9,867 nucleotides of DNA from Nitrososphaerota archaeon (lineage in GTDB: Archaea; Thermoproteota; Nitrososphaeria; Nitrososphaerales; UBA57). The stretch spans positions 1 through 9,867 of the forward strand of contig JACAFS010000038.1 of the NCBI GenBank assembly GCA_013378385.1. Direction: 5' to 3'. Made by a program: the position numbers and the translations under genes. Positions 1 through 9,867 of the stretch are shown piece by piece (the first letter of the stretch is position 1; every line of letters starts with the position of its first letter). The notes under the pieces are model-generated. The model made no database searches. It was not told the origin of the DNA and saw only the letters and a list, made by a program, of their open reading frames with translations.

Positions 1-533
1 ATTTGTTCCAAACTATTGCCATAAGCGATTAAACCATAACGACTAACTAATCCATAGGTTGGTTTCAATCCAACAATACCACAAAAGGAAGCAGGACACC
101 GTATAGAACCACCTGTATCACTGCCCAGGGCAAGGTCTGCCATACCGCCTGCGACAGCAGCGGCGCTGCCACCTGAAGAACCTCCAGGAACTCTTTCAAG
201 ATCATGAGGATTATGTGTTGGTCCAAATGCACTATGTTCGGTACTTGAACCCATTGCAAATTCATCGCAATTTGCTTTTCCTATAATAATTGCGCCATGT
301 TTTTTTATCAATGAAACTGCATGTGCGTCATATGGAGGAACGTAGTTTTCAAGCATTTTTGATGCGCAAGTAGTCCTTAGACCTGAAGTAGATATAGTAT
401 CTTTAACTGCTATGGTTTTTCCAGACAATTTACCGTCAGAGATTGAATCGTCAAGTTGAGAAAAAGTGATATATGCATTAATAGATTTGTTTTTTTCTTT
501 TATTTCCTCAAATTCATCAAGTAAGTTACTCAA
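1..533 (-). CDS. gatA: Asp/Glu-tRNA amidotransferase subunit A (GatA), N-terminal ~177 codons; the 3' end runs off the window
   Basis: Absent from the ORF track because it is open to the window edge. My translation of the minus strand from TTG at 533-531 reads (M)[176 protein letters not shown]. It carries the amidase-signature block ([12 protein letters not shown] ... GSDTGGSIR) and the AVKD lysine. TTG is the only start-like codon after the in-frame TAA at 539-537. Confidence 0.9.
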
Positions 534-536
534 TTT

Positions 537-812
537 TTACATCATCCGTGGGCCCTTGACAAATCTACCTTTCTTTTCAGGAACTACGTCAAGAATTTCA
601 TCGGCAATTGAATCTTTAGGAATATCTTCACGAAAGATGTTAGATAGTGTTTGAGAATCAATATCTTCAGAAGTATCAGCTTTAGATAATAAATCAAAAT
701 ATTCCAAAATCTCTGGGAATTGTTTATCTAATATTTCCATTTCTTGGGGAGAAAGATCAATCTTTGATAATTCAGAGTACTTTTTTGGATCAATAATTTT
801 TTTATCAACCAT
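537..812 (-). CDS. gatC: Asp/Glu-tRNA amidotransferase subunit C (GatC), 91 aa
   Basis: Small acidic protein lying between aspS and gatA. The C-terminal half (DTSEDID...NIFREDIPKDSIADEILDVVPEKKGRFVKGPRMM) matches the usual GatC pattern (DT..V.P...LREDE....L.NAP...G.F.VP). ATG start at 812-810, 6 nt after the aspS stop. Confidence 0.8.
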   Translation of the reverse strand: MVDKKIIDPKKYSELSKIDLSPQEMEILDKQFPEILEYFDLLSKADTSEDIDSQTLSNIFREDIPKDSIADEILDVVPEKKGRFVKGPRMM

Positions 813-818
813 ATACTA

Positions 819-2135
819 TCACGGCATAAGTCTATGTTGATCTCTTGGGAACATACAAACCTCGCGTATATTAGTCTGGTTTGCAATCATCATCATAAGT
901 CTTTCAAATCCTAAACCAAATCCTGCATGAGGAGGCATACCGTAATCAAATACTCTAAGATGGAACTCGAATCCATTAGGATTGAGGTTCTTTTGTTGAA
1001 GTCTATTTTGCAATTCGTCTTTGTCGCTAACACGAGTGCCGCCAGATGCAAGTTCTTTATTGCCATACATTAGATCAAATGACTCGGAATAATCACCTTC
1101 GCATTTAATGTAAAATGGTTTTCCAGCAGAAGGCCAATCAGTGACATAATAGAAATAAGGGTATTTTTTAGATAAGATTTCCATGGATTTGGTAGAAAGA
1201 TCATCGCCCCATTCAATTTTTGGATCTTCAACTTTGATTATATCAATTGCTTCGTTATATGTAACGGCAGGAATACTATCAAAATTAGTCCAGTCCTTTG
1301 AATTCAATATATCTAGATGTTCAGAGCTAGATTGTAAAAGATCGTCCTTAAGATCAATCAATAACTCTTCAATAATTTTAAGAACGTCTTTGTAGTCTAC
1401 AAATGCTTGTTCCATATCTACTGAGATAAATTCGCTAATATGATGCAGGGTTCTACTTTTTTCTGCTCGATATGCATAAGCAATCTCAAAAACTTTTTCA
1501 AAAGGAAGGACTAGTTGTTCTTTGAATAATTGCGGACTCTGAGTCAAAAATGCTTCTTTATCATAATAAAGCATAGGGAAGAGAGCAGATCCTCCTTCAG
1601 TAGCAGTAGCAATAATTTTTGGAGTATTAACTTCAAGATAATCTTTGTCAATGAAGAAGTTTCTTATTGATTGTAATGTTTTAGCACGCAATTTCATTAT
1701 AGATTGAGCAGAAGGACGTCTTAGATCAATAGCACGAATATCAAGTCTTTTATCTATATTTGGGAGTTGACCTCCATAAAGTGAGAAAGGAGGAATTTTA
1801 TTAGTGGTAGATAGAACGGATATCTCTTCAGGATGTAATTCTACACCATTAGGAGCTTTCTCATTTTTCTTAATCGTCCCACGAACTGCAATAGAAGAAT
1901 GCTCCTTCAGAGTTTCAGCTTGAGTGAAAATATCGTCAGGAGAAACGCCTTTTTTTATTATTATTTGAAGTGGACCAGTAGAATCATATAACATCATGAA
2001 ATAAATTTTTCCCTGCTTCCTCATACTGACAATCCAACCGATAACAGTGATATTTTTATTATCAAAATCTACAGAAATATCTTTAGAGTATGATGTCCTA
2101 ATCAATTTTTTTTGGTCATTTTTATCAGCGTTCAT
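819..2135 (-). CDS. aspS: Aspartyl-tRNA synthetase, archaeal/eukaryal type, 438 aa, probably non-discriminating given the adjacent gatCA
   Basis: Class IIb aaRS. The length leaves no room for the bacterial GAD insertion. Motif 2-like YRAEKSRTLHHISEFISVDME, motif 3 GFGLGFERLMM, and the C-terminal FPRDQHRLMP typical of archaeal AspRS. ATG start, TGA stop. Confidence 0.92.
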   Translation of the reverse strand: MNADKNDQKKLIRTSYSKDISVDFDNKNITVIGWIVSMRKQGKIYFMMLYDSTGPLQIIIKKGVSPDDIFTQAETLKEHSSIAVRGTIKKNEKAPNGVELHPEEISVLSTTNKIPPFSLYGGQLPNIDKRLDIRAIDLRRPSAQSIMKLRAKTLQSIRNFFIDKDYLEVNTPKIIATATEGGSALFPMLYYDKEAFLTQSPQLFKEQLVLPFEKVFEIAYAYRAEKSRTLHHISEFISVDMEQAFVDYKDVLKIIEELLIDLKDDLLQSSSEHLDILNSKDWTNFDSIPAVTYNEAIDIIKVEDPKIEWGDDLSTKSMEILSKKYPYFYYVTDWPSAGKPFYIKCEGDYSESFDLMYGNKELASGGTRVSDKDELQNRLQQKNLNPNGFEFHLRVFDYGMPPHAGFGLGFERLMMMIANQTNIREVCMFPRDQHRLMP

Positions 2136-2159
2136 GTCATATGAAAAATGTCGATTAAA

Positions 2160-2167
2160 GTATTAAA
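2160..2167 (-). promoter_or_regulatory. Possible TATA-like box (minus-sense TTTAATAC) upstream of aspS
   Basis: AT-rich 8-mer centred 28.5 nt upstream of the aspS ATG (2135). It overlaps the stop codon of the upstream oxidoreductase. Weak evidence on its own, because TATA-like strings are common in AT-rich DNA. Confidence 0.3.
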
Positions 2168-3194
2168 CTTTGAGTATTACCTTTCCAAAATGTTGACGAT
2201 TTTCAATCAGTTCATGAGCTTTATTTGCATCTTTAAGAGGGTAGACGCTATCTATAACAGGTTTTAATTGACCTGAATTGACAAATTTAAGAAGATGTAA
2301 TAAATCTCCTTTTGAACCCATGAATGAACCCATAAGAGATAATTGTCTACGGTACAATAATCGTATATCAAAATCAGTTTCCGAACCAGTAGTAGTACCG
2401 CAAGTAATCAATCGACCTCCATGAGTAAGAGAATCTATACTTTTAGACCAAGTAATCGCACCAACATGTTCGAATACAACGTCAACGCCAGCACGATTAG
2501 TGTTGTTCCTTACAATTTCTCCAAAGTCCTTATCGTTGTGATTAATAACAAAATCAGCTCCAAGGTCTTTCATTTTATTTAATTTCTCTTCAGTGCCAGC
2601 AGTAGCAAAAACATAACAGTTGAATAATTTGGCAATTTGTATTGCGGCACTTCCAACACCACTAGAACCACCTACAATCAATACAGTTTCTCCATTTTTT
2701 ATCTGTGCACGTTTAACTAACATATTCCAAGCAGTAAGAAAGGTCAAAGGAAGAGATGCGGATTCTTCAAATGAAAGATTTTTAGGTTTGGGTATAATAT
2801 TCGACAAAGGTACGGAAGCAAATTCAGCATAACCGCCTTTCTTCGCCCAGCCTCCAATAATACTATATTCTCTACAAAAATTATCATTTCCTTGAAGGCA
2901 ATGATTGCATCGACCGCAACTAGTTCCTGGAGATACAATAACTTCATCGCCATCGCTAATTCCAGGCGTATTGGAAGAATCCTCTATTATACCGGATATA
3001 TCACATCCAAGCACGTGTGGTAATTTAAGATCAGAATAACCTGTTTTTCCACTCCTAATCCAGAGATCAAGATGATTAATCGAACATGCTTTAACTCTAA
3101 CTAAAACGTCATTACTATTGATTATTGGATCTTCTATATCAGCAAACTCAAGAACGTCAGGAGAACCATGTTTATAGAATATTGAAGCCTTCAA
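2163..3194 (-). CDS. Zinc-type NAD(P)-dependent alcohol dehydrogenase / oxidoreductase (MDR superfamily), 343 aa
   Basis: Structural-zinc lobe CGRCNHCLQGNDNFC, Rossmann glycine motif VLIVGGSSGVGSAAIQ, GroES-like N-terminus MKASIFYKHGSPDVLEF...VRVKACSINHLDLW...PHVLGCDISG. TTG start (3194-3192), with an in-frame TAA 6 codons upstream. Substrate cannot be assigned. Confidence 0.8.
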   Translation of the reverse strand: MKASIFYKHGSPDVLEFADIEDPIINSNDVLVRVKACSINHLDLWIRSGKTGYSDLKLPHVLGCDISGIIEDSSNTPGISDGDEVIVSPGTSCGRCNHCLQGNDNFCREYSIIGGWAKKGGYAEFASVPLSNIIPKPKNLSFEESASLPLTFLTAWNMLVKRAQIKNGETVLIVGGSSGVGSAAIQIAKLFNCYVFATAGTEEKLNKMKDLGADFVINHNDKDFGEIVRNNTNRAGVDVVFEHVGAITWSKSIDSLTHGGRLITCGTTTGSETDFDIRLLYRRQLSLMGSFMGSKGDLLHLLKFVNSGQLKPVIDSVYPLKDANKAHELIENRQHFGKVILKV

Positions 3195-3217
3195 TTTAAT
3201 TAGAAAAACATTTTACT

Positions 3218-3227
3218 AAATATAAAT
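3218..3227 (-). promoter_or_regulatory. Possible TATA-like box (minus-sense ATTTATATTT) upstream of the oxidoreductase gene
   Basis: Centred about 28.5 nt upstream of the TTG at 3194, inside the 38-nt gap after the GT2 stop. Confidence 0.3.
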
Positions 3228-3232
3228 CTCAC

Positions 3233-3946
3233 TTATCTAGAATACCATTGAGAGAAATTTGATTTATCTTTCAATGTAGATTTTCCATGGGTAGATAATT
3301 GAACGGCAATTTTTACGAAATCTCTTGGTTTAAGATTATTTGCACGTCTGGACGAAGTATAAATTGGCTCTCGAATGACAGTGAATTTTTTATCGTTAGA
3401 TTTACCATACTTGCGTATAGCGTATGAAAAGTCTAGGTCTTCAAATGCGAAGATATCTTCATTAAATCCTCCAACTGCATCAAATACAGTTCGTTTACAA
3501 AACATGAATGCTCCAGTAGGGTTAAGATTCAATAAAGGCATAGAGATATTAGTAAATTTCCAAGTAGCCCGCCACCAAAATGGAGAAGAAACAAATTGAA
3601 CAATAGAACTACCTGCAATTGTGTCGTCTTGAGATATTTTATCAAGTAAAGTTTTTACGAGATATTTAGATGGCCATGAATCAGCGTCTATAAAAACGAG
3701 CCATTCGCCATTTGCAATACTAGCACCTTTATTACGTGCTTTAGATATTTGGTTAAATGATTCAAAAATTACTCTAGCTCCAAAATCTTTTGCAATAATT
3801 TGAGTGTCATCAGTGGAATTATTATCACAGACAATTATTTCATAATCAGAAAAACGATTAGATTCAAACGAGTTTTTAATTTTTATTAAATTTTCAAGCA
3901 AATGTAATTCTTCATTATAAGCAGGCACAATTATTGATATTTTCAA
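3233..3946 (-). CDS. Family 2 glycosyltransferase (GT-A fold), 237 aa
   Basis: N-terminal MKISIIVPAYNEE, DNNSTDDT, and a DxD-type FIDADS motif. TTG start (3946-3944), with a TAA two codons upstream. Confidence 0.8.
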   Translation of the reverse strand: MKISIIVPAYNEELHLLENLIKIKNSFESNRFSDYEIIVCDNNSTDDTQIIAKDFGARVIFESFNQISKARNKGASIANGEWLVFIDADSWPSKYLVKTLLDKISQDDTIAGSSIVQFVSSPFWWRATWKFTNISMPLLNLNPTGAFMFCKRTVFDAVGGFNEDIFAFEDLDFSYAIRKYGKSNDKKFTVIREPIYTSSRRANNLKPRDFVKIAVQLSTHGKSTLKDKSNFSQWYSR

Positions 3947-3970
3947 TTGTTATGGCTATCAAATTACATA

Positions 3971-3978
3971 CTTATAAC
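3971..3978 (-). promoter_or_regulatory. TATA-like box (minus-sense GTTATAAG) for the GT2-led gene string
   Basis: Centred 28.5 nt upstream of the TTG at 3946, in the 71-bp divergent intergenic region. The spacing implies a leaderless or near-leaderless mRNA. Confidence 0.45.
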
Positions 3979-3984
3979 CTTACA

Positions 3985-3994
3985 TTTTTTATAG
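3985..3994 (+). promoter_or_regulatory. TATA-like box (TTTTTTATAG) for metG
   Basis: Core TTTTTATA (3986-3993) is centred 28.5 nt upstream of the TTG at 4018, which implies a leaderless or near-leaderless mRNA. Confidence 0.45.
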
Positions 3995-4017
3995 CACTAG
4001 AATGATTAGATATCAAT

Positions 4018-5673
4018 TTGCGTGAAAATTTGGTTAAAGATAACATAGTCATTACAAGTGCGCTACCTTATGCAAATGGAGAGATTCATCTAGGTCACAT
4101 AGTATCAACTTATTTACCTGCAGACATTCTATCACGATTCTTTAGATTATCAGGAAAGAATGTTGTATTCACTTGTGCATCTGACGATTTTGGAACACCA
4201 ATACTTCTTCAATCTGAAAAGCAGAACATAACACCTCAGAAATATGTCGAATATTGGAAAGAGCGCGATTTAAAGGATTTTACAGATCTTGGAATTATGT
4301 TTGATGATTTCCAGAATACTAGTTCAGAAAAAAATATTGAATTAACTCAGTATTTCTTCAACCAGATTCATAATAACGAATTAATTTACAAAAAAGAAAT
4401 TAATCAATTATACTGCAATACTGATGAGAAATATCTTCCAGATAGGTACGTATTGGGAACATGTCCTTATTGTAATGAAGATAATCAATATTCTGATGGG
4501 TGTGAGAAATGTGGAAGGGCTTTCAATCATTCAGAAGTTCTAAAACCAAGATGTGCCATATGTCAAAATCAACCAGTGTTAAAATCAAGTATACATTATT
4601 TCTTCAAACTTTCAGCATTATCAAATAAATTAAAATCGTGGCTCGACAATAATGATAATCTACAAAAAGATGTTAAAAACTACGTAATCAGATGGATAGA
4701 AGATGGATTAAACGACTGGGACATAACCAGAGATATTACATGGGGAGTCAAGATTCCTCTAGAAGAAGCAGACGGAAAGGTCCTGTATGGTTGGTTTGAC
4801 AACCATATATGCTATATTTCAACCACAATCAATTATCTCGAGTCAAAAGGAATAAATGGAAAAGAATTTTGGAATAACTCTACAATATATCATTTCATAG
4901 GAAAAGACATCGTATACCATCATTATTTGTTCTTGACTGCAATGAGACTTGCCCTAAACGAGGAATATAAACTTCCAGATTATATTCCAACAAGAGGACA
5001 TTTAATGCTGCAAGGAGAAAAATTCTCAAAAAGCAGAGGAATGTATATCGGATTGAGGGATTTTTTGAATGATTTTCCAGCAGATTATTTAAGATATTAT
5101 CTAACAAGAATCACCCCCTACGATCAATCTGATGTAAATTTTGATTGGGATGATTTTCAAGTAAAAATAAACAATGAATTAGTAGCAAGTATTGGAAATT
5201 TTATTCATAGAGCATTAAGTTTTACAAATTCAAAATATAGTAATACAATTCCAGAGCCTAAAGAATACGATAAAGATGATCAAGAATTAATAGAATTAAT
5301 TCAAGAATCAAAAAATAAAGTTAGAGAAAATATAGAGAACAATCAAGTAGACAGAGCAATGAAAAATATTTTAGACTTGTCAGACGGTTGTAACAGATAT
5401 TTCCAAAAGAAAGAACCATGGAAAGGAAATAGCGAAAATACAATTTATTTGAGTATAAATGCAGTACATAGTTTAGGAATATTACTTCAACCATTCATGC
5501 CTCACAGCACAGAGAAATTATTCAAGTCAATGAATATTGAAGAAAAAACAGTAAATTGGAACAATTGTGGAGAATTATACATTAAATCCAATCATAAAAT
5601 AAATAAGCCTGAGATTTTATTCAAAAAAATTGAAGATAAAGAAATCAGTGAACAAAAAGAAAAACTAAAATAG
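4018..5673 (+). CDS. metG: Methionyl-tRNA synthetase, 551 aa, short form without an appended C-terminal tRNA-binding domain
   Basis: HIGH motif as EIHLGH, KMSKS motif as KFSKS, zinc knuckles CPYC...CEKC...CAIC in the CP insertion. TTG start (in-frame TGA 5 codons upstream), TAG stop. Confidence 0.93.
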   Translation: MRENLVKDNIVITSALPYANGEIHLGHIVSTYLPADILSRFFRLSGKNVVFTCASDDFGTPILLQSEKQNITPQKYVEYWKERDLKDFTDLGIMFDDFQNTSSEKNIELTQYFFNQIHNNELIYKKEINQLYCNTDEKYLPDRYVLGTCPYCNEDNQYSDGCEKCGRAFNHSEVLKPRCAICQNQPVLKSSIHYFFKLSALSNKLKSWLDNNDNLQKDVKNYVIRWIEDGLNDWDITRDITWGVKIPLEEADGKVLYGWFDNHICYISTTINYLESKGINGKEFWNNSTIYHFIGKDIVYHHYLFLTAMRLALNEEYKLPDYIPTRGHLMLQGEKFSKSRGMYIGLRDFLNDFPADYLRYYLTRITPYDQSDVNFDWDDFQVKINNELVASIGNFIHRALSFTNSKYSNTIPEPKEYDKDDQELIELIQESKNKVRENIENNQVDRAMKNILDLSDGCNRYFQKKEPWKGNSENTIYLSINAVHSLGILLQPFMPHSTEKLFKSMNIEEKTVNWNNCGELYIKSNHKINKPEILFKKIEDKEISEQKEKLK

Positions 5674-5726: not shown

Positions 5727-8012
5727 CTATTTTTTGTTGGCTCTAGAGAAGAGTACACCGCCAACTACTGCGAGAACTACACCAAGACCAATTACAACAT
5801 ATGAAATTGGACTGATAACTTCCTCAGTGGTGACGACTTCTACTTCTTCAACAACGGGTACTTCTACCTCTCGGACGACTTCGACTTCAACGATTCGTTC
5901 AGCACCAGGTACTTCTACTTCTCTGATGACTTCGACTTCTTCGATGACTTCGACTTCGACTTCGACTACACGTTCAACTTCTCTGATTTCAATGGCTACA
6001 TCTTGCCAATTGTCTCTCAGACCGTATGCCATAATGGCACCAGGTTGTGATGAACCCATTCCTCGAATTGCACGACCTCCGATAACTCTGAATATCTTCA
6101 TGTTACCATCGCTATCTGCAGCAATTGTAGGTTGGATTACAGCTTGTGAACCTGTGTTGTGTTCATAGAGTAGTTCTCCTGTATCTGCGTCAAGGCCTCT
6201 GGCCCAACCATCAACGGCTGCAAACCATACGACTCCACCACTGACAATGACTCCGCCTCGGAATCCATAACCGTCAATAAAGTATCTCCACTTTTCTTCG
6301 CCAGTGTTGACGTCGAATGCGACGATACTAGAATTGATTATTGGATCGTGAGGTGCAGCTGGATGACCACGTTCTTCTTGACATGCTGCATTACAACCAG
6401 CAAGGCTTACTCCTCGTGTTTCAGCATTACCGACTGATGCCCATTCAGGAAGGTTGTATAAACCAGCATAGATCATGTTTCTGTCAGGATCGAATGCAAA
6501 GTCAGCTTCAAGACAACCTGTTGTTTGACAGTTCATCCAGAATGGTTTTGTGTCAGGATAGTTAGTCCATGGTTTTGTCATATCTGCATCACTTAATGGA
6601 TCATATAATTCACAGATTACTGCACAACGTTGAATGAATGTTGATTCCATTGCATGGTATGCATAGCCTGTTTCTGCATCAAGTACATAAATTATACCGT
6701 TTTTACAGCCTCCAAGAATGACTCGTTTCTCTTCATTGTTTACTACGGTGTCTACCAGCATAGTATTCCATGAACAGTCATAGTCCCAAAGATCTCGTGG
6801 GGCTGTTTGATATGCCCATAAGAATTCTCCATTTTTAGCGTCAAGAGCAACAAATGATGCTCCGAACAATCTTGGACCAGGTGCATGAGTACCGTTTCTA
6901 TCAGGTCCAGCTTGTGCTGTACCATAGTAGATTCTACCATTTTCTTTGTCGATAGGCATCTGTCCCCAGACATTGCTTATACCTGAGTTAGAACGCATGT
7001 CTCCCCAGTCGTTTCTAAGGATATCTTGGTTCATTTCACAAGCTTTGTGAGCAAATGGAGCTTCGGTTACTTTTGGTGAGTACATCCAGATCTTATCACA
7101 GTTATCTACTAACCATTGACCCCAAGCGGCTTTCTCTTCTACGAATAGTGGGCCATCTTTACCAGGACCACATGTTGTAGGATCACCACAAGGAGGTTGT
7201 AAGAAAGTTCTCCAGACTAATTCGCCAGTGTCATAAGTTCTTGCAGAAGCAAAGTGTCTGCCTCCATAAGTTCCTTCAGCATGACCACCGAGTGCATGGT
7301 AAATTAGATTTTCTTCAACCCAAGTAGTTGGAGGATGTGTTCCTCTACTTCTGTATTCGCCACTGTTAGTTGGAATACCCCAGCCAGCTGCATTTAATTT
7401 GCTTGCAGGATACCAACCGTCAGCTGCATTTGTATTTTCAACACATAAGTGAAGAATTTGTTTTGCAACTTCGCCAGTCTTTGGATCATTGAATGTGTAT
7501 TTACATCCAAAGTCTGTTTGCACTAAGAAACCATCACTGTAATACATACCATGAGTGTGGGCTGTATCAACAGAGATAGGATAATCTTTTCGTCCTTGAT
7601 CTTGATCATATTCAGGATGTTCCCATTGCCAAACAACAGTTCCATCTCTTGCATTATATGCGAGAATTGATTTTCGATTTAAGACATTAAAGACAATACC
7701 GTCTACAACCAATTGAGGAGCTTGTGAACCTTCTGCGTTACCCCAACTACCCGCTCCGAATTGTGTTACGGAAGGCATAGGTGCAACCCATTTTAGTTCT
7801 ATAAACTGTGCGTTCTCTTTATTGATTTGTGTTTGAGGATTGTGGTTTGTTCCGAATCGATTATGATTCATGAATTCCCAATTTCGCTCTTCACGGCTGA
7901 GATTGTTTTGTCCTTCAGCTGTTCCCATAGGTGTAACAAGTACCAAAGTAGATGCTACTAATAAATAACCCAATAGGACGGCAGCAAATGCTAACCAATT
8001 TCTATGGTTCAT
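5727..8012 (-). CDS. Quinoprotein (PQQ-type) dehydrogenase family protein, 8-bladed beta-propeller, with N-terminal signal/anchor and C-terminal EV-repeat stalk plus TM anchor (paralog 1, 761 aa)
   Basis: The N-terminal mature region NWEFMNHNRFGTNHNPQTQINKENAQFIELKW resembles the quinoprotein ADH start (NW...G...YSPL.QIN..NV..L..W). Other family matches: PQLVVDGIVF; repeated W-docking-type motifs AxDxxTGxxxW (AYNARDGTVVWQW, TYDTGELVWRT, ALDAKNGEFLWAY, VLDAETGY, AFDVNTGEEKWRY, GLDADTGELLY); GGHAEGTYGGR (compare GSSGAELGVRG); PRDLWDYD (compare PHDEWDYD/WDFA); CKNGIIYVLD. 14 Cys. Confidence 0.8.
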   Translation of the reverse strand: MNHRNWLAFAAVLLGYLLVASTLVLVTPMGTAEGQNNLSREERNWEFMNHNRFGTNHNPQTQINKENAQFIELKWVAPMPSVTQFGAGSWGNAEGSQAPQLVVDGIVFNVLNRKSILAYNARDGTVVWQWEHPEYDQDQGRKDYPISVDTAHTHGMYYSDGFLVQTDFGCKYTFNDPKTGEVAKQILHLCVENTNAADGWYPASKLNAAGWGIPTNSGEYRSRGTHPPTTWVEENLIYHALGGHAEGTYGGRHFASARTYDTGELVWRTFLQPPCGDPTTCGPGKDGPLFVEEKAAWGQWLVDNCDKIWMYSPKVTEAPFAHKACEMNQDILRNDWGDMRSNSGISNVWGQMPIDKENGRIYYGTAQAGPDRNGTHAPGPRLFGASFVALDAKNGEFLWAYQTAPRDLWDYDCSWNTMLVDTVVNNEEKRVILGGCKNGIIYVLDAETGYAYHAMESTFIQRCAVICELYDPLSDADMTKPWTNYPDTKPFWMNCQTTGCLEADFAFDPDRNMIYAGLYNLPEWASVGNAETRGVSLAGCNAACQEERGHPAAPHDPIINSSIVAFDVNTGEEKWRYFIDGYGFRGGVIVSGGVVWFAAVDGWARGLDADTGELLYEHNTGSQAVIQPTIAADSDGNMKIFRVIGGRAIRGMGSSQPGAIMAYGLRDNWQDVAIEIREVERVVEVEVEVIEEVEVIREVEVPGAERIVEVEVVREVEVPVVEEVEVVTTEEVISPISYVVIGLGVVLAVVGGVLFSRANKK
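5730..5816 (-). other. C-terminal anchor of paralog 1: ISPISY motif, TM helix (VVIGLGVVLAVVGGVLF), basic tail SRANKK
   Basis: Residues 733-761. A hydrophobic 17-18 aa stretch followed by R/K residues at the extreme C-terminus. 20/29 residues are identical to the paralog 2 tail. Confidence 0.7.
5817..5993 (-). repeat. In-frame low-complexity repeat encoding a 59-aa Glu/Val-alternating stalk (IEIREVERVVEVEVEVIEEVEVIREVEVPGAERIVEVEVVREVEVPVVEEVEVVTTEEV)
   Basis: The plus strand shows gacttcgacttcgacttcgac and related units, that is minus-sense (GAAGTC)n / GAAGTA units. Composition is essentially E, V, I, R, P, T only. Confidence 0.85.
7917..8012 (-). other. N-terminal signal peptide or signal-anchor of paralog 1
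   Basis: MNHRN (positive n-region), WLAFAAVLLGYLLVASTLVLV (hydrophobic core), then TPMGTA-EG, a small-residue candidate cleavage site. Confidence 0.6.
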
Positions 8013-8032
8013 TGCCGGTATAGTAATGAATG

Positions 8033-8041
8033 TATATTTAA
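8033..8041 (-). promoter_or_regulatory. TATA-like box (minus-sense TTAAATATA) for PQQ paralog 1
   Basis: Centred about 25 nt upstream of the ATG at 8012. No SD-like sequence lies between them, which suggests a leaderless or very short 5' UTR. Confidence 0.4.
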
Positions 8042-8107
8042 GAAATTATAGAAAATATGCAATTACATATAAAGAAGTTCATAAAAATCGCCAAATATTG
8101 AATGAAT

Positions 8108-8127
8108 GTTAAGAAAAGAATCTTAAC
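8108..8127. promoter_or_regulatory. Inverted repeat GTTAAGA-N6-TCTTAAC in the inter-paralog spacer
   Basis: Perfect 7-bp arms (8108-8114 / 8121-8127) about 96-115 nt upstream of the paralog 1 ATG and downstream of the paralog 2 terminator. Candidate regulator-binding palindrome; function unknown. Confidence 0.3.
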
Positions 8128-8146
8128 GATGGTGTTGTGTTTGAAT

Positions 8147-8181
8147 AAAAAAAATATTAGAGCTGCCTATTTCTAGGCAGC
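8147..8181 (-). terminator. Hairpin plus T8 terminator-like element downstream of PQQ paralog 2
   Basis: Minus-sense GCTGCCTA-GAAA-TAGGCAGC (8181..8162): perfect 8 bp with a GNRA-type loop. It is followed by TCTAATATTTTTTTTA (A8 on plus strand 8147-8154) and begins 11 nt after the TAG stop (8195-8193). Confidence 0.6.
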
Positions 8182-8192
8182 GTCTAAAATAA

Positions 8193-9867
8193 CTACTTTG
8201 AGGTTGATCTAGAGTAGATAACGCCAGCTACTACTACTAAGATTACACCTAATCCAATTGCAACGTATGAAATTGGACTGATGACTTCTTCAGTTACAGT
8301 AACTTCTGTCTCTACTTCAACGATTCTTTCGACTTCAACAGGTACTTCCTTTTCAACTATTACTTCGTTGATGATCTCCTTTTCAACAATTCTTTCGACT
8401 TCGACTTCTCGTTCGACGACGACTTCGACTTCTTGAATTATTGTCTCTGGACCATCAGGTAGTTGATCTGGGTTACCAAATGCAGCTAATGAACCTGGAA
8501 GTGCTGTACTAGAGAATAAGAATCCTCCACCACCACCAATGTATAGGAATACTTTGTAGTTTCCATCACTGTCTGCACCAATTGTTGGCATAACACTTAC
8601 TGGAATTCCGAACAATTTCTTGTTAAGAATTTCACCTGTGTCTGCGTCCAACATGTACATGTTTCCATCACTAGCATATGCATATACTACGCCGCCACTA
8701 ACCATGACACCGCCTCTATATGAAACGCCTTCAATGTATGTACTCCATACTTCTCCACCGGTTCTCCAGTCGAATGCATGAATTGTTGAATTCTTTGGTT
8801 CTACTTGTTCAATTGTACTTCCCTGGTTACCAAAGTCAGTTACAGGTTTAATCTGGAACCTTCTTGGAGAGTTCTGTACACCCATGTAGATGTGTTTGTC
8901 ATCAATTGCCATGTCTGATTCGATATGTGCCCATGCGTTTGGACCCACTGCAATACCAGTACATGAATTAGTTTCTCCTGCTGCACAGTCTGGTGAGTTC
9001 TGGTTCATCCAGTCCTTGTTCATGTGTTCAAATGTCATATCACAACATGCGTCTGGGCCGACTACCTGAGCTCCACCGTTACCACTTACACCTAAGCTTG
9101 AGTCACCACCATAGTTCCAACCTTGCATATTACGAGCTATGCTTTTTGGATCGATGATCCATATAGGTTCACCAGTAGCTGAATCAAGTGCGTAAACGAT
9201 ACCGTTCTTGCAAGATGCGATGTAGACTTCTTGATTACCTATGTCTCTCAATGCACCACCCCATGAACAGTCCATGTCCCACAAATCGTGTGGTAAAGCT
9301 GCAAATCCCCAACCGAGTTCGCCGGTTCGAGCGTCAACAGCAATTAATGCACTACCAAAGAGGTTTGGTCCGAATCTGAGAGTACCGTTAGGATAAGGTC
9401 CTACGTCACCTGTTCCCATGTATACTAGACCAGTCTTCTCACTGTAAGGCATGTTGCCCCAGACTACTGAGAATGCACTTGCGGTGTGTATTTCACCGAA
9501 ATGAGGAGTACCTGGTTTCATATTAATCCAATCGTTATTTACTGCATCAACAGGTACATCTCGGCAGTTAACTGCTAGATGTGAGCCTCCTGATTCAATA
9601 TATTTAGGATATTCAAAGTACCATACTTGACCGTTAGTTCTATCACATTGGTCTTGTGCCCATGTTGGTTGACTTCCGTCACCAGGAGGCATTAACCAGT
9701 TACGATAAACTTCAGTTGGAGAAGCTGCGTTACTGATGTCAATTCCAATAAGACTGGAACGTCCACCACGACCACTTGCACCGAATGAAGGCCATACGAC
9801 AATATCGTCAATTATTTGAGGAGGATGGTTCTGAATAGCACTCATGTAACCTTTACTCTTGAATGTA
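8193..9867 (-). CDS. Quinoprotein (PQQ-type) dehydrogenase family protein, paralog 2; the 5' end runs off the window (by eye ~235 aa missing)
   Basis: The ORF track starts at the ATG at 9845, but the frame stays open to the window edge (upstream codons ...TFKSKGY-MSAIQ). By eye its first residues align near residue 237 of paralog 1 (LMPP vs LQPP; NNDW vs RNDW; VVWGNMPYSEKTGLVYMGT vs NVWGQMPIDKENGRIYYGT). Shared motifs: AVDARTGELGW, PHDLWDMDCSW, CKNGIVYALDSATGEPIW, AFDWRTGGEVW, GGVMVSGGVVY, MLDADTGEIL, PTIGADSDGN. Same EV stalk and anchor as paralog 1. Confidence 0.8.
   Translation of the reverse strand, partial: TFKSKGYMSAIQNHPPQIIDDIVVWPSFGASGRGGRSSLIGIDISNAASPTEVYRNWLMPPGDGSQPTWAQDQCDRTNGQVWYFEYPKYIESGGSHLAVNCRDVPVDAVNNDWINMKPGTPHFGEIHTASAFSVVWGNMPYSEKTGLVYMGTGDVGPYPNGTLRFGPNLFGSALIAVDARTGELGWGFAALPHDLWDMDCSWGGALRDIGNQEVYIASCKNGIVYALDSATGEPIWIIDPKSIARNMQGWNYGGDSSLGVSGNGGAQVVGPDACCDMTFEHMNKDWMNQNSPDCAAGETNSCTGIAVGPNAWAHIESDMAIDDKHIYMGVQNSPRRFQIKPVTDFGNQGSTIEQVEPKNSTIHAFDWRTGGEVWSTYIEGVSYRGGVMVSGGVVYAYASDGNMYMLDADTGEILNKKLFGIPVSVMPTIGADSDGNYKVFLYIGGGGGFLFSSTALPGSLAAFGNPDQLPDGPETIIQEVEVVVEREVEVERIVEKEIINEVIVEKEVPVEVERIVEVETEVTVTEEVISPISYVAIGLGVILVVVAGVIYSRSTSK
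8196..8282 (-). other. C-terminal anchor of paralog 2: ISPISY motif, TM helix (VAIGLGVILVVVAGVIY), tail SRSTSK
   Basis: The last 29 residues have the same length and architecture as in paralog 1. Confidence 0.7.
8283..8441 (-). repeat. In-frame low-complexity repeat encoding a 53-aa Glu/Val/Ile-alternating stalk (IIQEVEVVVEREVEVERIVEKEIINEVIVEKEVPVEVERIVEVETEVTVTEEV)
   Basis: The plus strand shows cgacttcgacttctcgttcgacgacgacttcgacttc, that is minus-sense GAAGTC/GAAGTA units. It shares ERIVEVE and TEEV with paralog 1. Confidence 0.85.

Follow-up and report, generated by a model that had tools for sequence, protein, structure and literature searches.

A conserved D-x-D motif and a possible lanthanide-type site in tandem PQQ dehydrogenases of a heterotrophic marine thaumarchaeon

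In eight-bladed dehydrogenases that use pyrroloquinoline quinone (PQQ), the ligands of the active-site metal include Glu177 and Asn261 in the calcium-containing MxaF, and are Glu172, Asn256, Asp299 and Asp301 in the lanthanide (Ln)-containing XoxF (PMC11845868). A 2026 preprint labels "2D-1E-1N" as the canonical Ln set and "1D-1E-1N" as the calcium set (10.64898/2026.07.14.738520). The extra Asp, which stands two residues after the catalytic one (+2) in a D-x-D motif, is one that XoxF1 and ExaF need to function with Ln (Good et al., bioRxiv 10.1101/2020.02.25.964783), and according to Voutsinos et al. the evidence to date has the motif both necessary and sufficient, with unknown enzymes needing verification (PMC11996626). 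Here we describe this motif in two tandem PQQ dehydrogenase genes, paralog 1 and paralog 2, on contig JACAFS010000038.1 of a Nitrososphaerota archaeon (assembly GCA_013378385.1); the whole stretch of 9,867 nucleotides that was analysed is called the window.

Among archaea, DYD or DXD motifs were reported in the PQQ dehydrogenases of heterotrophic marine Thaumarchaeota (HMT) and linked to lanthanides by Aylward and Santoro (2020, mSystems; PMC7300363), and the link is repeated in a 2024 review (PMC11845868). A 2026 preprint names three archaeal candidates whose pocket is the canonical 2D-1E-1N, one of them a Nitrososphaerales protein. No experimental Ln test of an archaeal eight-bladed PQQ dehydrogenase was found in the literature searched. 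The window proteins are members of the HMT group, sharing with it the lineage, the signal peptide and transmembrane anchor, the lack of a Cys-Cys pair and the DYD/DXD motif (PMC7300363). The D-x-D observation in an earlier note on this DNA is thus a correct rediscovery, of low novelty because it is already in print; what is new here are the other ligand positions, a swap between the Glu and Asn positions, a pair of invariant Cys residues, and the placing of the clade with respect to reference enzymes.

The D-x-D block and its possible metal

Two minus-strand genes lie in tandem at the right end of the window. Paralog 1 (5727..8012) encodes a complete PQQ-dependent dehydrogenase of 761 amino acids, and paralog 2 (8193..9867), with the same linker and anchor, is 35% identical to it over about 590 residues. 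Since its frame is still open at the window end, nt 9867, some 210 N-terminal residues of paralog 2 are missing; a full-length ortholog of 765 amino acids is found at the syntenic locus L007:7524-9821. The Pfam family PF01011 (PQQ enzyme propeller) matches both paralogs, paralog 1 at 3e-40, and hhalign against an alignment of the bacterial methanol/ethanol family gives a probability of 100% with an E-value of 1e-68. An AlphaFold2 model of paralog 1, built with 28 family members as input, reached a predicted local distance difference test score (pLDDT) of 78.7 and a predicted template modelling score of 0.79, and in Foldseek it matches all solved eight-bladed PQQ alcohol and methanol dehydrogenase (ADH, MDH) structures near-equally, with E-values from 1e-34 to 1e-28. 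Both proteins have the eight-bladed PQQ propeller fold.

The catalytic block of paralog 1, P405-RDLWDYDCS-W415 (6768..6800, minus strand), holds D410-Y411-D412 at 6777..6785, where the reverse complement reads GAC TAT GAC. In paralog 2 the reverse complement of 9270-9278 is GAC ATG GAC, giving the D-M-D of PHDLWDMDCSW, within the segment W-D-M-D-C-S-W at 9261..9281 on the minus strand; the earlier note had located both motifs correctly. The bare tripeptide is common: paralog 1 has six copies where chance predicts 2.4, and paralog 2 has three, so only its position is meaningful. Four alignment methods, namely phmmer against the PDB, a family-profile hmmsearch against the PDB, a 130-sequence MAFFT alignment and hhalign against the bacterial family alignment, agree in placing D410 on the catalytic Asp (D299 in XoxF of SolV, D303 in MxaF) and D412 on the Ln ligand D301 of XoxF, the second Asp of D-Y-D in 4mae and 6dam. 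The block of paralog 1 pairs with TPHDEWDYDGIN of XoxF, HDEWDYAG of MxaF and HHDLWDMDLPA of the membrane glucose dehydrogenase (mGDH). In the column of D412, MxaF has Ala (D-Y-A) and the type II/III quinohemoprotein ADHs have Thr (D-Y-T); the MxaF block, given in the earlier note as D-F-A, in fact aligns as PHDEWD-Y-A, whereas the note's placing of the motif in the catalytic block, with the second Asp at the Ln-ligand position, is borne out. D412 is invariant in the archaeal clade (67/67 members). By alignment, then, D412 corresponds in position to the Asp with which XoxF/PedH coordinate the lanthanide, and the motif is functional rather than fortuitous.

In the mechanism that we propose, the two proteins, eight-bladed PQQ dehydrogenases of a Thaumarchaeota-specific clade, would be secreted and held at the outer face of the cell membrane by their acidic stalk and C-terminal helix. 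Their substrate is probably an extracellular alcohol, sugar or aldehyde, and the electrons may go to a blue-copper protein or to the quinone pool. By homology D410 would serve as the catalytic base and D412 as an extra carboxylate ligand of the active-site metal beside the C5=O of PQQ, the putative site being made of E246, D410 and D412 plus Gln367 in paralog 1, and of an Asp at the position of residue 367 together with the two motif Asp residues in paralog 2. Our tentative preference, to which we give a little less than an even chance, is that this is a non-canonical lanthanide-type site holding a trivalent Ln3+, which would act as Lewis acid as in XoxF/PedH. That these are working PQQ enzymes is favored by the retention of the equivalents of MxaF Trp243 and of Arg331 (as Lys). 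HMT genomes, moreover, carry genes for PQQ synthesis and for plastocyanin-like proteins and none for cytochrome c, and their PQQ dehydrogenases are highly expressed (PMC7300363).

A separate clade with altered residues at the ligand positions

Several results weigh against a lanthanide, and they concern the placement of the proteins, their ligand set and, as discussed with the divalent alternative below, the other enzymes that carry the motif. In a word-indexed search, 65 thaumarchaeal proteins came up at E <1e-71 before the matches fell away to bacterial enzymes near 1e-27, an interval which an exhaustive profile search fills with more divergent relatives. Against the profile of the PQQ methanol/ethanol family (TIGR03075, curated cut-off 480 bits), paralog 1 scores 147 bits, the cut-short paralog 2 scores 73 and its full-length ortholog 123, while the nearest bacterial relatives pass with 534-683 bits; against the mGDH profile (TIGR03074, cut-off 833 bits) the same three proteins score 106, 66 and 108 bits. 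A neighbor-joining tree (custom script, 498 columns, 200 bootstraps), a rough distance method with long branches that included neither a PedH nor an ExaF sequence, recovered the archaeal clade as monophyletic in 200/200 bootstraps and XoxF as its sister in 0/200, and the methanol/ethanol-family sequences (MxaF, XoxF, type II/III ADH and uncharacterized clades) group apart from the archaeal clade and mGDH in 142/200. Identity to every reference is 22-28%, and the archaeal clade stands equally distant from XoxF and mGDH. Because family scores, tree and identities all place them apart, the window proteins belong with neither XoxF/PedH nor mGDH but make up a third deep lineage. The label "XoxF/PedH-like" given in the earlier note does not hold for a separate deep clade that falls far below the TIGR03075 cut-off and has neither the canonical ligand set nor the Cys-Cys pair, and the motif cannot be read as "XoxF-like" in these proteins. 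The phylogenetic placement suggested there as a check puts the proteins not with glucose dehydrogenase but in a clade of their own, where D-x-D is not metal-discriminating.

The canonical set of two Asp plus a single Glu and a single Asn is found in neither paralog. At the position of the Asn ligand (Asn256 in SolV, Asn261 in MxaF), where the motif GTAQAGP aligns on G(S/T)GNP, paralog 1 has Q367 (6912..6914, minus strand), as do 57 of the 67 clade members in having Gln, and paralog 2 has the Asp of GTGDVGP (9405..9407, minus strand); both alignments are gap-free. The candidate equivalent of Glu172/177 is E246 (7275..7277, minus strand), which is conserved and sits in a loop that exceeds its counterpart in the references by 2-3 residues; all aligners put the reference Glu 1-2 columns away from it, and the match is ambiguous. 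Paralog 2 has no acid in this loop, which reads GASGRGGR (9759..9782, minus strand), the Glu-bearing residues AEGT of paralog 1 being deleted. These two positions vary together. An acid at 245/246 accompanies Gln or Asn at 367 in 56 of the 67 clade sequences (55 Gln, 1 Asn), and two further Gln-367 sequences are N-terminally truncated and do not cover the loop; all nine sequences with Asp at 367 have no acid at 245/246. The nine form a single sub-clade (197/200 bootstraps), and hence the pairing of Glu loss with Asp-367 represents one event within the archaeal clade. A bacterial group (P0077, P0108, P0120) shows this combination independently, with Ser or Gln for the Glu and Asp for the Asn. 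The correlation supports the placing of E246 and position 367 in one site, and we infer from it a charge-conserving ligand swap that would keep three carboxylates at the metal, which speaks for the proposed lanthanide-type site.

Other active-site residues are a mixture of the familiar and the clade-specific. W349 (6966..6968), the equivalent of the PQQ-stacking Trp243 of MxaF, is invariant. C436-K437 (6702..6707, minus strand, like the other features of this paragraph) contains K437 at the position of MxaF Arg331 and of the active-site Lys of ADHs and mGDH, and C413 (6774-6776), directly after the D-x-D, makes up a Cys pair with C436 (6705-6707). All clade members (67/67) have C413, C436 and K437, and C413-C436 may be a clade-specific disulfide that replaces the vicinal Cys-Cys. 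The calcium enzyme 4cvb also has a Cys directly after its D-S-E, and paralog 2 has SCKNG, with Cys before the active-site Lys, at 9201-9215. In place of the Cys-Cys...Arg109 segment of MDH and ADH enzymes, paralog 1 carries H152-T-H154 (7551..7559), where H154, which hardly varies within the clade, takes the column of the PQQ-binding Arg109; in the alignment the vicinal Cys-Cys over PQQ is missing and the segment reads A-H-T-H. HMT enzymes all lack Cys-Cys (PMC7300363).

Compared with the Ln enzymes XoxF, ExaF and PedH (4MAE, 6DAM, 6OC6, 6ZCW), the window proteins share the eight-bladed propeller, the W-D-Y-D block and the PQQ-stacking Trp, and paralog 1 has an acidic residue near the Glu ligand. 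They differ in a sequence identity of 22-25%, in their separate clade below the family cut-off, in Gln or Asp for the Asn ligand with the Glu displaced or deleted, in having no match for accessory residues of the Gly171/Thr259 type, in the lack of Cys-Cys, in His for Arg109 and Lys for Arg331, and in a C-terminal membrane anchor. Partner genes for XoxG (cytochrome cL) and XoxJ are also absent here: a search for lanthanide or calcium-insertion gene context in the window found none among the genes present, neither xoxG/xoxJ-like nor known Ln-handling ones. Foldseek does not favor Ln enzymes over calcium enzymes either, since calcium-type quinohemoprotein ADHs (8gy2, 1kv9, 1yiq) and 4cvb rank above the XoxF structure 6dam, and the local block of paralog 2 has 7/11 identities to mGDH vs 6/11 to XoxF.

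Likeness to E. coli Gcd (TIGR03074) lies in the HDLWD-M-D block (PHDLWDMD in paralog 2 vs HHDLWDMD in Gcd), a Lys at the Arg331 position aligned with K437, which we take to be the residue numbered Lys493 in Gcd, a longer loop at the Glu position, the lack of Cys-Cys, and a membrane-bound state with a presumed quinone link. In contrast, mGDH has an N-terminal five-helix membrane domain instead of a cleavable signal peptide, with its single hydrophobic N-terminal helix, and a C-terminal anchor, is 22-23% identical, and has Thr rather than Gln or Asp at the Asn position. With MxaF and the type II/III ADHs (1W6S, 9ISM, 1KB0, 1YIQ, 8GY2) the fold, the catalytic Asp and Trp243 are shared, and with the ADHs, the best Foldseek matches, also the Lys at the Arg331 position; these enzymes differ, however, in Ala or Thr at +2, the canonical Glu and Asn, the Cys-Cys pair, and a small subunit or cytochrome c domain.

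Alternatives to a lanthanide

The best surviving alternative is that the same site holds a divalent ion, Ca2+ or Mg2+, both abundant in seawater, which we consider a serious contender and only slightly less likely than Ln. D-x-D would then be ancestral to the superfamily of eight-bladed PQQ dehydrogenases and uninformative on Ln outside the methanol/ethanol clades, and D412 would compensate for the altered Asn and Glu ligands. E. coli mGDH, with W465-D466-M467-D468 in the same columns as the archaeal D-x-D, bears out the caveat of the earlier note about WDMD in glucose dehydrogenases: it is a divalent-metal enzyme that works with Ca, Mg, Zn or Sr (cited in PMC11996626). The Ca2+-containing 4cvb, calcium-dependent according to the same source (PMC11996626), has D-S-E at the motif in the phmmer alignment, its +2 residue being Glu, and a Gly in the column of the Asn ligand. 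A +2 Asp is found not only in the archaeal clade and mGDH but in 53/55 of the nearest bacterial relatives and in a haloarchaeal enzyme, a distribution that fits an ancestral residue whose loss was confined to MxaF and the type II/III ADHs. Among 89 distant representatives of 50% clusters, Asp or Glu stands at +2 in 83 and Asp at the catalytic position in only 67; the better conservation of the +2 residue counts for the mechanism proposed above. The calcium-type pattern D-x-(Ala/Ser/Thr) occurs neither in the archaeal clade (0) nor among these representatives (0/89), so that the lineage offers no internal contrast between calcium and Ln forms like that of MxaF/XoxF or PedE/PedH. The separation of the archaeal clade from the methanol/ethanol-family sequences in the tree and the lack of Ln-related genes nearby in the window fit a divalent ion too. 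On the other side, in the literature consulted every D-x-D eight-bladed enzyme that has been tested with lanthanides uses them, mGDH lying outside that set (PMC11845868, PMC11996626); mGDH itself is predicted by Voutsinos et al. to be facultatively Ln-dependent (PMC11996626); and three carboxylates around a divalent ion together with the anionic PQQ would probably be electrostatically unfavorable. Given the separate clade, the non-canonical site, the D-M-D of mGDH and the majority of D-x-D among uncharacterized bacterial relatives, the comparison indicates that D-x-D is not metal-discriminating in the archaeal lineage, and the metal is not readable from sequence alone.

Some relatives with the motif deserve mention in their own right. 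A haloarchaeal PQQ dehydrogenase is encoded at L003:2191-4089 on a Natrinema thermotolerans plasmid (CP031304.1) and has the canonical ligand set GGE / ANP / D-Y-D; its gene adjoins one annotated as plastocyanin, a neighbor that fits a blue-copper electron acceptor for archaeal quinoproteins. P0067 and P0076, bacterial metagenome proteins, are D-F-D PQQ dehydrogenases that continue into a fused amicyanin/cupredoxin domain at the C-terminus (PF00127; TIGR02657 at 2.5e-12).

It is unlikely that D412 is no metal ligand at all. It would then have a structural or substrate role, such as positioning Cys413-Cys436 or binding a polyol, or the proteins would be cofactor-less, non-redox propellers. Such readings draw on the second-best NCBIfam match, which is the "acido-empty-quinoprotein" model, on the replacement of Arg109 by His and the loss of Cys-Cys, and on distant relatives which keep D412 where D410 is Ser, Gly, Asn or Glu, suggesting a role partly independent of the classical base. 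The window proteins, however, conserve the equivalents of W243 and Lys/Arg331, D410 and the ligand at the Asn position; HMT genomes encode PQQ synthesis and the genes are highly expressed (PMC7300363); and the +2 position faces the metal in all solved homologues (PMC11845868). Distant 50%-cluster representatives with the +2 Asp kept and the catalytic Asp replaced (S-N-D-C, G-W-D-C, E-x-D) include P0131, P0143, P0136, P0139, P0153 and others, and a few further relatives lack both Asp residues (G-F-G-C) as well as the active-site Lys; relatives without the canonical Asp may be non-catalytic offshoots. That D-x-D is a chance tripeptide without function, as its near-random frequency in the paralogs might suggest, is refuted by its place in the most conserved block, aligned to the catalytic block of every reference and invariant in 67/67 members.

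Architecture, genomic setting and meaning

Paralog 1 is composed, in order, of a signal peptide, the eight-bladed beta-propeller, an acidic linker and a C-terminal membrane anchor, and its model shows an N-terminal helix (3-26), an all-beta core, a disordered region (678-735) and a C-terminal helix (735-758). The predicted Sec signal peptide, amino acids 1-34 (7911..8012, minus strand), begins with MNHRNW and ends at a putative cleavage site GTAEG/Q; the clade consensus ends in AEA followed by Q. The Glu/Val-rich low-complexity linker, amino acids 676-731 (5820..5987, minus strand), has a pLDDT below 50 and, in Tandem Repeats Finder, periods of 6 and 18 nt; a stalk with the same DNA periodicity lies at about 8300-8450 in paralog 2. 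An antisense open reading frame at 5734-6168 on the plus strand (144 aa, Thr/Ser-rich) overlies the stalk repeat and is most likely a by-product of it. The anchor, amino acids 732-761 (5730..5819, minus strand), is built of the conserved motif SPISY, then a transmembrane helix and a tail of basic residues, with P735, Y738, G742 and R757 invariant in the alignment, and gave no significant match to NCBIfam sorting-signal models. Given the signal peptide and the C-terminal transmembrane anchor, the proteins are therefore regarded as extracytoplasmic, membrane-tethered quinoproteins.

The remaining genes of the window are gatC (537-812), aspS, a Zn-ADH-type oxidoreductase, a GT2 glycosyltransferase and metG, and a partial frame at 1-536 (minus strand), probably a gatA-type amidase subunit after gatC, corresponds to a syntenic 446-aa amidase at L007:17479-18819. 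An Rfam scan of the window gave no match. While the exact paralog 1 sequence has 0 matches in public assemblies, orthologs with 85-90% identity, located by a pattern scan, occur in five metagenome-assembled genomes (MAGs) of Thaumarchaeota/Nitrososphaerales, including "isolate ATL" and UBA223. The genes are archaeal, as the earlier note had supposed. Synteny with locus L007 extends over the entire window (PQQ-PQQ-metG-GT2-ZnADH-aspS-(gatC)-amidase). Aylward and Santoro describe the HMT lineage and mention an HMT_ATL MAG (PMC7300363); the source of the window is a deep-sea heterotrophic thaumarchaeon of this HMT lineage. Outside the window equivalent, upstream of the paralog 2 ortholog, L007:1052-4323 carries two MoxR-type AAA_3 ATPases and a DUF58 gene, which recall mxaR/mxaS of the metal-insertion cluster of methanol dehydrogenase. 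This adjacency is missing beside the ortholog in L004, and therefore the neighbors, which may be coincidental, were not counted as evidence for metal insertion.

The GC content of the PQQ genes (5727-9867) is 0.43, vs 0.31-0.36 in the housekeeping neighbors (1-5673). A 2026 paper has suggested horizontal acquisition of HMT PQQ dehydrogenase genes (PMC13374868). As a cause of the GC difference in the window, horizontal transfer was rejected because the difference lies mostly in codon positions 1 and 2 (0.49 vs 0.34-0.43), i.e., in amino-acid composition, with third positions only slightly above the neighbors (0.28-0.31 vs 0.19-0.25).

If a lanthanide does occupy the site, the surface-exposed PQQ dehydrogenases of this dark-ocean lineage could prove to be the first demonstrated archaeal Ln enzymes, taking Ln3+ directly from seawater into a coordination unlike that of XoxF, a proposal that we regard as conceivable though somewhat short of probable. 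The site would then use Glu, Gln and two Asp, or three Asp without Glu and Asn, with His for Arg109 and Cys413-Cys436 for the vicinal disulfide. For mutagenesis, the swap between the Glu and Asn positions and the two invariant Cys residues offer concrete starting points. HMT are widespread in the dark ocean, and their PQQ dehydrogenases make up about 3% of small genomes and are among the most expressed genes (PMC7300363). Were Ln needed by these enzymes, deep-sea archaeal carbon oxidation would depend on lanthanides present at picomolar levels, and the biochemistry of these metals would take in a second domain of life, together with a coordination sphere of a new kind.

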